Below are positions 1-9,304 of a stretch of 64,000 nt of DNA, one piece after another (the stretch's first letter is position 1; the number at the start of each line of letters is the position of its first letter). Position numbers and translations under genes: made by a program. The notes below the pieces were generated by a model. It worked only from the letters and a program-made list of their open reading frames with translations, made no database searches and was not told where the DNA came from. Source of the stretch: an uncultured Anaerolineales bacterium (GTDB lineage: Bacteria > Chloroflexota > Anaerolineae > B4-G1 > SLSP01); NCBI GenBank assembly GCA_964504195.1, contig CAZDDI010000006.1, forward strand, positions 48,394 through 112,393, given 5' to 3'.

Positions 1-327
1 GATCCGGCTGGGAATCTCCGCCAGCCGCCCCACCGCGGCCAACATCGTTAATGCCTCGCCCGTGCGGAAATTCCCCGGCACCAGCCCCACGCCCCACCGT
101 GAAAGCGGACGCACCGCGCGCACGGCCTTCTCATTCAGCACCAACAGCCGAAAGACCCCTTCATCCATCTCGCCATCAAGCAACCAACTCGTGGAATTTC
201 CTTGCGGATCTGCATCAATCACAATCACCCGCTTCCCACTCCGCGCCGCACCCACGGCCAGATGAATCGCTAACGTGGTCTTACCCACACCCCCTTTTTG
301 CGTCGCCAAACCCACAATCGTCCCCAT
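1..327 (-). CDS. parA: ParA/Soj family ATPase (N-terminal part; runs off the window edge; not in the ORF track)
   Basis: Manual translation from ATG 327: MGTIVGLATQKGGVGKTTLAIHLA...VIVIDADPQGNST...GLVPGN; deviant Walker A KGGVGKT and DxDPQ motif. Confidence 0.9.
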   Translation of the reverse strand, partial: MGTIVGLATQKGGVGKTTLAIHLAVGAARSGKRVIVIDADPQGNSTSWLLDGEMDEGVFRLLVLNEKAVRAVRPLSRWGVGLVPGNFRTGEALTMLAAVGRLAEIPSRI

Positions 328-346
328 ACTCCACCCCCTTGATAAT

Positions 347-532
347 TTATGCTTGCGCAGCCTCTTGCTGCACTGGCTCTGCTGGCAGCGTCTCATCCAC
401 CGGCCCTACCAGCAACGCGCCGCCAGTCCGTAACAGCTCCACCGGCTCGCGCCCATACCGCTTCACAAATGCCGCCCGCGCCTTTTCATCTTCGCATTGC
501 GGTGTAAATCCCATATAGGTTGCTCCGATCAT
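347..532 (-). CDS. Small hypothetical protein
   Basis: 61-aa ORF in the operon direction between FtsK and ParA. Confidence 0.6.
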   Translation of the reverse strand: MIGATYMGFTPQCEDEKARAAFVKRYGREPVELLRTGGALLVGPVDETLPAEPVQQEAAQA

Positions 533-542
533 TTCTATCTCC

Positions 543-565
543 TTCCGCGTATCCCCATTAGCGGA
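543..565. repeat. Copy 1 of imperfect palindrome TTCCGC(G)TA..CCCATTAGCGG
   Basis: TTCCGCGTATCCCCATTAGCGGA; related copies at 5509-5532 and 9111-9134. Confidence 0.75.
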
Positions 566-581
566 TATTTATTCAATATCC

Positions 582-648
582 CGTGTCACCACCGTGTCAC
601 CGCTTTTTCCGCCGTGTCACCGCGTGTCACCCGTGTCACCGTGTCACC
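582..648 (-). repeat. Six direct copies of CGTGTCACC (GGTGACACG on the minus strand) at the 3' end of the FtsK gene; clt/TRS-like
   Basis: GTGTCACC at 583, 594, 614, 624, 633 and 641, each preceded by C. Confidence 0.85.
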
Positions 649-2006
649 ACCCCCGCAGCCTGGACGGGGGTGGTGAGCAGCTCCGCCAACTCCGCAGTCA
701 CATACCGCGCACTCGCCGCGTCCGCCTGCCCCGTCAACCAGCCCCGGTGCTCCCATTGCCGCGCCAGCTTCGCCAGTTGGCGCTTACTGATCGCCCCCTG
801 GAACTGCTCCGCCAGCCGGTTGATGATGAAAGCCCCATCCAACTGCAAAAGTGCATAGCGCACCAGTTCCGCCTCCACCGTGTCCAATCCGGCCCGCTGC
901 TCCGGGCACAACGCCAACCCGCCCAGCAACGCCTCCCGCGCGGCCTCATCCACATAGCAAGTCTGCACTTCCTGCCAGTCCCCGCCCACAAATGTCAGGC
1001 AACGTCCCTTATCCCGCAGTTGCTCCGCCCCAGCGCGATCCAGAATCACCCGGCTATCACTATTACTCTTCGTGCGGAATGCAATCGCGGTCGGCAAATT
1101 CGCCTTCACTTGCGCGTCAATGACTTTGGTCGTCGGATGCTGCGTTCCCACCATCACACTGATCCCAAACGCCCGCCCCTTCCGCGCGAGCTCTACCAGC
1201 GTGTCCATCGTCGGCGTCCCCGCGAAGTCCGCCGCCTCATCTACCACCAACAGGATCAGCGGTAGCGTCTCATCCGCGCCCGCGTTGTACTGCTGCCAGT
1301 TGGGGACGCGCGCCCCGGCCAGCAACGCCCGCCGCCGTAATAGTTCCCCCATCGTCTGCTCGATAGCGCGCTCGCACTCTTCAATCTCGTTGGCGATGGG
1401 ATACAGCAGTTGCGGAAGTTCGCTGTACATCGTGAAATCCACTAACTTCGGATCGAGCAGCACCAGCCGAAACTCGTTCGGCCCATGCTTCGCGGCGAGC
1501 TGCACCAGCACACTCTGGATGAACGTCGTCTTCCCGAAGCCGCTTGTCCCGCCCACCAGAATCGCCCGGTGTTCGTCGCCGATGTCCAGCGTCACGGCCC
1601 CCTGCGCCCCATACCCCAGACATACTGCGTAAGGCGCAGCCGGGAGCAGCTCGGTCGTCAATGGCAGATGCGTCGGCACCGTGCACGCTGCATTTCCCAA
1701 CGCCTGCCGCTGCATCCCCGGCTGACGGCTCACCGCCACCGCCAGGCCACCCGCATCCACCACCCACACCGGATGCCCCCCGGCCATGATACTGATGCTC
1801 TCCCGCAACTCCCACGAAAGCCACCGCTCCCGCGTGACATTTCCCAAGCGTTGCATATCCAGCGCAAACACACAATACTCCGGGAAGACAAACCCCGTCG
1901 CTTCTGGCACCACATACCCGCCCTGCTGCGGCCGCTCCAACAGCCACCCCTGCGTGCGCAGCGCCCGCAACACCGCTTCCCAATACGTCTCGATCTCACG
2001 CATCAT
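636..2006 (-). CDS. FtsK/SpoIIIE family DNA translocase (TraB-like)
   Basis: Walker A GGTSGFGKT, LLDPK, Walker B LLVVDEAAD, RKGRAFGISVMVGTQHP, GAEQL..KG; possible C-terminal winged helix. Confidence 0.92.
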   Translation of the reverse strand: MMREIETYWEAVLRALRTQGWLLERPQQGGYVVPEATGFVFPEYCVFALDMQRLGNVTRERWLSWELRESISIMAGGHPVWVVDAGGLAVAVSRQPGMQRQALGNAACTVPTHLPLTTELLPAAPYAVCLGYGAQGAVTLDIGDEHRAILVGGTSGFGKTTFIQSVLVQLAAKHGPNEFRLVLLDPKLVDFTMYSELPQLLYPIANEIEECERAIEQTMGELLRRRALLAGARVPNWQQYNAGADETLPLILLVVDEAADFAGTPTMDTLVELARKGRAFGISVMVGTQHPTTKVIDAQVKANLPTAIAFRTKSNSDSRVILDRAGAEQLRDKGRCLTFVGGDWQEVQTCYVDEAAREALLGGLALCPEQRAGLDTVEAELVRYALLQLDGAFIINRLAEQFQGAISKRQLAKLARQWEHRGWLTGQADAASARYVTAELAELLTTPVQAAGVVTR

Positions 2007-2028: not shown

Positions 2029-2250
2029 TCAATGCGACACTAATGCCGCGCCCTCTATGTCTTTAGCATCAGTGCCACATTGATGCAGAGCGTCTTCCAC
2101 AACGACTACATCTAGGCGAAGACCGGCTTTTGCGAGTGTCCAGCGCAGAATGTTAGCACAACTGCGCTCACCCCAAATCATATTTGATTCCTGCTCCAAA
2201 ATCGGCACCATTGCCTCGGCTGCTTTCTCAATCATTTCCTCGTTGTTCAT
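2029..2250 (-). CDS. Hypothetical protein
   Basis: 73-aa ORF, more AT-rich than its neighbours, RBS-like GGAGG upstream. Confidence 0.55.
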   Translation of the reverse strand: MNNEEMIEKAAEAMVPILEQESNMIWGERSCANILRWTLAKAGLRLDVVVVEDALHQCGTDAKDIEGAALVSH

Positions 2251-3582: not shown

Positions 3583-3586
3583 CACC

Positions 3587-5508: not shown

Positions 5509-5532
5509 TTCCGCTAATTCCCATTAGCGGAA
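5509..5532. repeat. Perfect palindrome TTCCGCTAAT-TCCC-ATTAGCGGAA immediately after the recombinase stop
   Basis: 10-bp arms with a 4-bp centre; core shared with 543-565 and 9111-9134. Confidence 0.8.
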
Positions 5533-9110: not shown

Positions 9111-9134
9111 TTCCGCGTAGTCCCATTAGCGGCA
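9111..9134. repeat. Copy 3 of the TTCCGC..CCCATTAGCGG palindrome
   Basis: TTCCGCGTAGTCCCATTAGCGGCA. Confidence 0.75.
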
Positions 9135-9256: not shown

Positions 9257-9304
9257 ACACGGTTTGGGTCCGTGAGGTCCGGGGTTCGAATCCCCGCGCC
9301 CCGA
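9257..9304 (+). other. attR: 3' fragment of tRNA-Pro(TGG)
   Basis: Anticodon arm CACGG-TTTGGGT-CCGTG, T arm CGGGG-TTCGAAT-CCCCG and 3' acceptor strand CGCCCCG; the upstream sequence lacks the complementary 5' acceptor strand and a D arm. Confidence 0.85.

Follow-up and report, generated by a model that had tools for sequence, protein, structure and literature searches.

FtsK-family pumps are known to load at specific sequences both on chromosomes, at KOPS and SRS, and on Streptomyces plasmids, at clt. FtsK and SpoIIIE are hexameric double-stranded DNA (dsDNA) pumps whose C-terminal winged-helix (wHTH) domain reads oriented 8-mers, and these sequences, KOPS and SRS, are dispersed and strand-skewed over the whole chromosome. 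TcpA of Clostridium perfringens pCW3 is the FtsK-like ATPase of a conjugation system; it works with the relaxosome and the Tcp secretion apparatus on single-stranded DNA and possesses N-terminal transmembrane domains. To our knowledge, phage-encoded FtsK-like genes are widespread and stand without an assigned function. The closest known system to the locus described here is TraB/clt of Streptomyces. In conjugative plasmids and AICEs such as pSVH1, pJV1, and pIJ101, an FtsK/SpoIIIE-type motor with a C-terminal wHTH is paired with 8-bp TRS repeats (PMC4447253, PMC3429521). FtsK/SpoIIIE-like genes also occur in temperate phages, namely Bacillus gamma-like phages, phiCM3, and a Chloroflexus-associated viral contig, where the available parts of the two reports leave their function unknown (PMC4113786, PMC8597652).

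The locus analyzed here lies in a 64-kb stretch of DNA, referred to as the window (C6:48394-112393), and combines an FtsK-like pump gene with a direct-repeat array. Its resemblance to TraB/clt is twofold. Both systems comprise an FtsK/SpoIIIE-type motor with a C-terminal wHTH, whose fold is predicted here, and both place 8-9-bp direct repeats of element-specific motif at or just after the 3′ end of their own motor gene. The putative sequence specificity of the phage pump's wHTH is drawn from covariation. Differences lie in the motor, which is only about 25% identical to the Streptomyces proteins, and in the missing membrane domain, a separate membrane protein being encoded upstream. The host belongs to the Chloroflexota (Anaerolineae), and the carrier is a tailed prophage, not a conjugative plasmid or AICE with spd and TraR/KorA. 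Moreover, the units are set at fixed 8-9-10-20 spacings, and translation of the array often yields a linker before a conserved C-terminal peptide.

With FtsK gamma/KOPS and SpoIIIE/SRS, the locus shares a dsDNA pump with a matching motor fold (E about 1e-24) and a wHTH of predicted gamma-like fold, although the phage pump lacks the N-terminal 4-TM domain and the long linker. The motif is concentrated in one local array, whereas its 9-mer occurs at chance level in the rest of the genome. One-mismatch copies of the motif in the element stand 6:0 on the coding strand, and this skew is not significant, as 38% of permuted motifs are at least as biased and 3.5% reach at least 6:0. A KOPS-like dispersed code is unsupported, given the single cluster and the lack of significant skew against permuted motifs. 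The first-pass annotation had invoked both clt and KOPS as models. The likeness to clt stands on the one local array; the likeness to KOPS, with its dispersed and skewed 8-mers, does not. TcpA is the second-best structural match of the pump motor (Foldseek), but no relaxase or secretion genes were found in the annotated parts of the prophage, and the pump has no transmembrane segment. The described phage FtsK-like genes share a position in the early/lysogeny region of a temperate siphovirus, whereas the available parts of those reports describe no cognate repeat array or winged-helix specificity module (PMC4113786, PMC8597652).

The repeat array and its prophage

On the plus strand, CGTGTCACC occurs six times in the same orientation, at 582-590, 593-601, 613-621, 623-631, 632-640, and 640-648, with a single C common to the last two copies. 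The motif reads GGTGACACG on the coding (minus) strand (Table 1). The stop codon TGA of the FtsK-like gene, TCA at 636-638, falls within the fifth plus-strand copy. The gene shares its final codons and its stop with the array, inside which the pump protein ends (...VVTR*). On the coding strand, the units start 8, 9, 10, 20, and 11 bp apart, leaving spacers of 0, 1, 2, 12, and 3 nt between copies of the core 8-mer GTGACACG. Within the window, CGTGTCACC has no copy outside the array, and dinucleotide shuffles of the 64 kb yield 0.43 expected copies and a maximum of 2. The whole 4.9-Mb genome contains 56 copies, of which 50 lie outside the array. These are single, scattered, and approximately as numerous as base composition predicts, and no second cluster exists in the genome. 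Since the non-array copies are isolated at chance level, the motif is not a dispersed repeat. The first-pass annotation had reported six co-oriented repeats straddling the FtsK stop and unmatched elsewhere in the window, and each of these points is borne out.

A scan of positions 300-900 for promoters and terminators gave no match. An RNA element at the array is unsupported, as Rfam gave no match over 300-1000 and the array region has an unremarkable predicted RNA fold (z = -1.7).

Table 1. Features of the array locus and its prophage, with the pump paralogues of the same genome. Positions refer to the window unless a contig is given.
Feature	Position	Strand	Description or evidence
ParA-type partition ATPase, 5′ part	1..327	-	Gene runs past the window start
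61-aa ORF	347..532	-	First gene downstream of the array; strong ribosome-binding site (GGAAGGAGAT)
Imperfect palindrome with CCCATTAGCGG	543..566		Between array and 61-aa ORF
Array, six GGTGACACG units	582..648	- (coding strand)	Exact copies; geometry recurring in homologous loci
FtsK/SpoIIIE-like dsDNA translocase, 456 aa (paralogue 1)	636..2006	-	Pfam PF01580, PHROG 1358, AlphaFold, Foldseek; array GGTGACACG
Predicted C-terminal wHTH, residues 372-445	672..893	-	AlphaFold, Foldseek, covariation with array motif
73-aa ORF	2029..2250	-	Between membrane protein gene and translocase gene
Membrane protein, 435 aa	2530..3837	-	Likely start at the Met near position 3585
Second tyrosine recombinase, 459 aa	5538..6917	-	2.4 kb from attR
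attR	9258..9304	+	47-nt duplicate, 91% identical, of the tRNA-Pro 3′ part (C6:15111-15157)
Pump paralogue 2	C1:96938-98296	+	Array GGTGCTACG
Pump paralogue 3	C1:340076-341377	-	Array GTGTTTTAAGG x6

The array is carried by a 42.6-kb element (C6:15111-57697, comprising 33 kb upstream of the window and the window itself up to position 9304) integrated in tRNA-Pro. Its right end is marked by attR, and a third att copy, which would be a sign of two tandem elements, was sought and not found. An integrase of the tyrosine recombinase type adjoins tRNA-Pro (L095 1299-2354). The element carries minor tail, Dit, and tape-measure genes as well as genes for a major head protein, head morphogenesis, portal, and large terminase, and nearly all phage genes lie on one strand. 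The presence of tail, head, portal, and terminase genes between the two att copies identifies, at the level of gene content, a complete siphovirus-like tailed prophage. By Pfam, no Spd or TraR family was detected in the genes scanned. The element is neither an AICE, the impression conveyed by the window part alone, nor a plasmid. Outside the element, a histidine-kinase gene of the host has named homologues from Anaerolineae, Anaerolineales, and Chloroflexi alone.

All genes around the array lie on the minus strand. The pump gene is preceded by the 73-aa ORF, the membrane protein gene, small ORFs, and the tyrosine recombinase gene. The array is followed by the 61-aa ORF, ParA, a 123-aa ORF, and a 1035-aa DnaG-type primase, beyond which lie a PAPS-reductase-like gene, DUF5131, and an amidase. 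Neither the 73-aa nor the 61-aa ORF has a family match. The 435-aa protein displays a hydrophobic N-terminus, an Ala/Gln-rich middle, one strong transmembrane helix, and a C-terminal domain of ~130 aa. Proteins of this family, with one or two transmembrane helices and a conserved cytoplasmic tail, are encoded directly upstream of the FtsK-like gene in relatives too, and hence the membrane protein is a probable membrane partner of the pump. The CCCATTAGCGG motif occurs in three co-oriented intergenic copies in the prophage, at 543-566, 5509-5532, and 9111-9134 (cores 554, 5520, and 9122). The first lies 16 bp from the array and just upstream of the ribosome-binding site of the 61-aa ORF. A related 10-mer has only single occurrences elsewhere in the genome. 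The palindrome is probably an operator or another protein site, distinct from the array.

Arrays and neighboring genes in relatives

The pump family has at least 296 matches and is named only in Chloroflexota. Loci were fetched from GTDB MAGs (8) and from metagenomes (about 45), resulting in 44 non-redundant homologous loci, all from Chloroflexota or metagenomes, with 35-62% protein identity. A scan of genome contigs with the single protein recovered no relatives, whereas alignment-based scans did. IMG/VR contains two relatives only. Among 301 genomes of the phylum, the full-length family is present in 2, and the other matches are chromosomal FtsK.

An array was scored when at least four same-strand copies of an 8-mer, one mismatch allowed, started 5-50 nt after the wHTH. 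Such arrays, which the first-pass annotation had proposed to look for beside homologs, are present in 35 of the 44 loci (about 80%), compared with 15% of 774 control windows from the same loci that reach four copies. Thirteen loci reproduce the 8-9-10-20 spacing exactly, and 11 have a partial or degenerate version of it. Three others differ in orientation: L006, L023, and L038 have the whole array inverted relative to the gene with its order kept as 20-10-9-8, and this retention of internal spacing marks the array as an autonomous DNA module. The ORF runs through the array in 27 of 41 loci, with changing frames and tails such as GDTVTRVTRGDT, while the array comes only after the stop codon in 7 loci and, in the window, contains it. 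An array placed after the stop, within the ORF, or in shifting frames indicates selection on the DNA. On this comparative basis, the conserved object is the DNA and not the peptide that it sometimes encodes.

Motifs vary by locus and include GGTGACACG, GGTGATACG, GGTGA(C/T)AGG, GGT(C/A)ACAGG, GGTGCTACG, GGTACGACG, GTGGTAACG, CACGTCACG, CGTGATATC, and CCGCACAGG, among others. A clear array is absent after the gene in L050, L058, L059, and the G015 homologue (L104, G015:C567, 2190-2480). In these array-less members of the family, the site is either elsewhere or lost.

Several further layouts were observed. At 100-170 nt after the wHTH, the tails of many relatives close with a conserved short peptide, ELPPFL or GFPVPTFS (for example, L002, L004, L005, L007, L020, and L039), which the window's protein does not have. 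The codons of this peptide vary synonymously, which shows that it is truly coding, and it may serve in docking to a partner. In the most distant subgroup (L052-L057, L060), the proximal CCGCACAGG array is not the only one: beyond it, another tandem array of different sequence (AATGACC / AATGACAG, period 7-8 bp) lies 50-130 nt after the gene, and L060 has a further copy about 300 nt downstream. Units of the CGTGACACC type at 12-bp spacing are found in L040 (1-1200) and L101 (4293-4400); in L040, they lie inside a tandem repeat of 42 bp whose translation gives a long protein tail.

The pump gene and the membrane protein gene upstream of it are the only constant genes among the loci. Downstream neighbors include ParA, a ParM-type actin, a tyrosine integrase, a large serine recombinase (L005), and unknown genes. 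The ParA gene next to the array is not conserved in relatives, as it adjoins the array in three loci only, namely the window, its paralogue, and L009. Elsewhere, ParA lies far upstream, ParM is present instead, or recombinases follow downstream, and the array stays at the 3′ end of the pump gene. In L099 (5659-6651), L100 (5700-6671), and L021 (3393-4364), an actin-like (ALP_N/ParM) gene replaces ParA; the family thus swaps partition systems and keeps the pump/array module. Similar arrays also occur together with replication genes of at least four unrelated kinds (DnaG-type primase, DnaB-like helicase, D5-type primase-helicase, primase-polymerase, and HTH_36/DnaA_N Rep). One relative, on a 45-kb contig, also has a large terminase gene.

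The genome of the window encodes three pump paralogues, each with its own, different array at the stop codon. The two others are 56% and 31% identical to the window pump and lie inside other integrated elements. Judged from their motifs, the three co-resident pump/site pairs are apparently orthogonal.

The pump, its predicted winged helix, and motif covariation

The pump ORF matches PF01580 (FtsK_SpoIIIE, E 1.8e-20) in Pfam and PHROG 1358 (E 1.9e-57), which is classed as an auxiliary gene. Residues 1-362 form the alpha/beta motor, which begins at residue 1 and contains Walker A (GGTSGFGKT) and Walker B (LLVVDEAAD) motifs that are invariant among 32 family sequences. The AlphaFold model has a mean pLDDT of 88.8, and Foldseek matches the whole model to the FtsK motor (6t8o/2ius) at E about 1e-24 (7e-25 over about 393 columns). 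A hydropathy scan detected no transmembrane or hydrophobic segment in the 456 residues.

The C-terminal winged-helix segment suspected by the first-pass annotation is recovered as a predicted fold. Residues 372-445 are modeled as three helices and a beta wing (pLDDT 82-89, AlphaFold), with the recognition helix at residues 408-421 (KRQLAKLARQWEHR) and the wing at approximately residues 424-437. Modeled alone, the domain matches wHTH-DNA complexes of AspA, the MarR family, and DtxR in Foldseek, with the FtsK gamma domain (2j5p) also ranking near the top. These matches have TM scores of 0.5-0.7 with marginal E-values and correspond to a generic wHTH. Among PDB sequences, a profile of the domain had insignificant hits only (TnsB HTH, E 0.11).

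Mutual information between motif positions and residues was scored over 412 alignment columns in 36 sequences. Motif position 4 has its top values with residues 412 and 408 in the recognition helix and position 8 with residues 429-432 in the wing, where mutual information is inflated by variable columns and the highly variable motor residue 132 also ranks high. The associations can be read at the residue level. Among loci with AGG-ending motifs, the wing is HATD in 19 of 20 and NAVD in the remaining one; ACG-ending motifs have HATD in none of 12 loci, and the closest wing is HAAD. All four loci with T at motif position 8 carry a 4-residue GHKxG wing insertion. Motifs with a non-G at position 4, GGT(A/C), are accompanied by SRRQ(I/L)(V/L)K in the recognition helix instead of SK(R/Y)xLT. 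In the distant CCGCACAGG group, the HATD wing is found together with another helix, TAWRIR. On the motor-domain tree, these pairings turn up repeatedly, in separate clades. They suggest that the 5′ half of the motif is the target of the helix and the 3′ half that of the wing, and the co-variation of motif and wHTH that had been posed as a check is found at positions 4 and 8.

The wHTH-coding DNA lies less than 100 bp from the array, and recombination could co-transfer both without a functional link. Parsimony counts of motif-class changes on the wHTH tree versus the motor tree are 5 vs 5, 7 vs 8, and 21 vs 23. Because these counts are nearly equal, it is on the residue-level associations that the covariation claim rests.

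A candidate recognition site and competing readings

The array is probably a clt-like recognition, docking, or loading site for the adjacent FtsK-like pump. This reading, in essence the one put forward by the first-pass annotation, draws support from the homologous arrays, the covariation, and the predicted wHTH fold. Other functions of the repeats have to be weighed against it. That they are a by-product of a low-complexity protein linker or of replication slippage, with no function at the DNA level, is extremely unlikely. The read-through of the ORF in 27 of 41 loci is what such an origin would leave, but the units of 8, 9, and 10 bp shift the reading frame, and the array follows the stop in 7 loci, is inverted in 3, and contains the stop of the window protein. 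In addition, DNA motif and spacing are conserved and the encoded peptide is not. Short direct repeats are also typical of iterons and of recombinase arm-type sites, and in many relatives a recombinase gene follows the array within 0.1-2 kb. Even so, we regard an iteron-type origin or an arm-site cluster located beside the pump by chance as very unlikely. Near-identical motifs accompany the unrelated kinds of replication genes listed above, the recombinases belong to two unrelated families (tyrosine and, in L005, serine), and the att sites of the window prophage lie 8.6 and 33.9 kb from the array. Plasmid-origin iterons measure 17-22 bp, unlike the 8-9-bp units with spacers of 0-2 nt found here.

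A partition function has more local appeal. Type Ib par loci have short repeats upstream of parA to which a small ParB/ParG-like protein binds, and the array could analogously serve as centromere and operator of the downstream operon (61-aa ORF, ParA, 123-aa ORF). In the window, the 61-aa ORF follows it after ~50 bp and parA after ~250 bp, a small ORF comes after parA, and AspA, a centromere-binding wHTH, is the best structural match of the pump's C-terminal domain. We nonetheless consider this function quite improbable, given that only three loci have ParA beside the array and that about 780 bp, including another ORF, separate the array from the start of ParA in the paralogue. The array keeps its place, geometry, and similar motifs where its neighbors are ParM, a recombinase, or unknown genes, and the separate palindrome between array and operon is a better candidate for the operator. 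Alternatively, the pump's wHTH may bind the array for autoregulation of downstream transcription or for static tethering of the phage genome to a membrane complex. The evidence linking wHTH and array is equally compatible with static binding, and the array lies just upstream of the next operon in several loci. This option appears improbable, since the motor is intact, with its invariant Walker motifs and FtsK alpha/beta fold, the genes downstream of the array vary and include convergent ones, and Streptomyces precedent ties such arrays to translocation (PMC4447253). The ParA centromere, the iteron origin, recombinase arm sites, and a pure linker repeat are each contradicted by the comparative data.

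Recognition of the array by the adjacent pump would operate as follows; in this scheme, we infer that the pump physically binds the array, how many subunits it has, that it associates with the membrane, and what the system is for. The array would act in cis as a docking or loading site for the translocase whose gene overlaps it. The C-terminal wHTH domains of the pump would read the 9-bp units with the helix directed to the 5′ half and the wing to the 3′ half, and several domains of one oligomer, presumably a hexamer, may sit on the tightly packed units. Occupancy of the array would then mark the phage genome as the specific substrate of the pump. The soluble motor probably acts at the membrane together with the conserved membrane protein encoded upstream.

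Two purposes may be envisaged for such a system. Excised or replicating phage DNA may be moved across the septa between cells of a filamentous host, similar to TraB-mediated transfer and spreading in Streptomyces. Alternatively, the pump may clear or segregate an extrachromosomal form of the phage at cell division; elements with the array carry ParA or ParM genes. A stronger version of the former option is that a family of temperate tailed phages of filamentous Anaerolineae possesses a second, virion-independent mode of spread in which the excised, array-recognized genome is pumped as dsDNA across septa into adjacent cells of the filament, with the membrane protein taking part. We put this forward tentatively and think it unlikely. 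If true, it would extend conjugative spreading of the Streptomyces type beyond the Actinobacteria, to a bona fide phage.

For a phage FtsK-like pump, the new elements are a candidate cognate cis site, its conserved geometry, and a readable code of putative protein-DNA specificity. Through the cis site and the code, pump function becomes directly testable. The family also offers a compact natural set of apparently orthogonal pump/site pairs, three of them in one genome. Finally, these loci prompt the question whether phages of multicellular filamentous bacteria use a conjugation-like dsDNA pump to move or segregate their genomes.

The repeat search was also applied to other FtsK-family genes. 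As a positive control, two of three Streptomyces traB-like loci displayed 8-bp arrays, starting 0 to ~60 bp after the stop codon, and about a dozen chromosomal ftsK genes had no 3′ array. In the Streptomyces loci L013 (7008-7130) and L014 (7014-7160), the traB-like gene is immediately followed by direct 8-mer blocks and then by the same 8-mers in inverted orientation (CCGCTGG / CCAGCGRAT; GACCGTCA / TGACGGTC). This clt layout is convergent, whereas the Chloroflexota arrays are one-directional.
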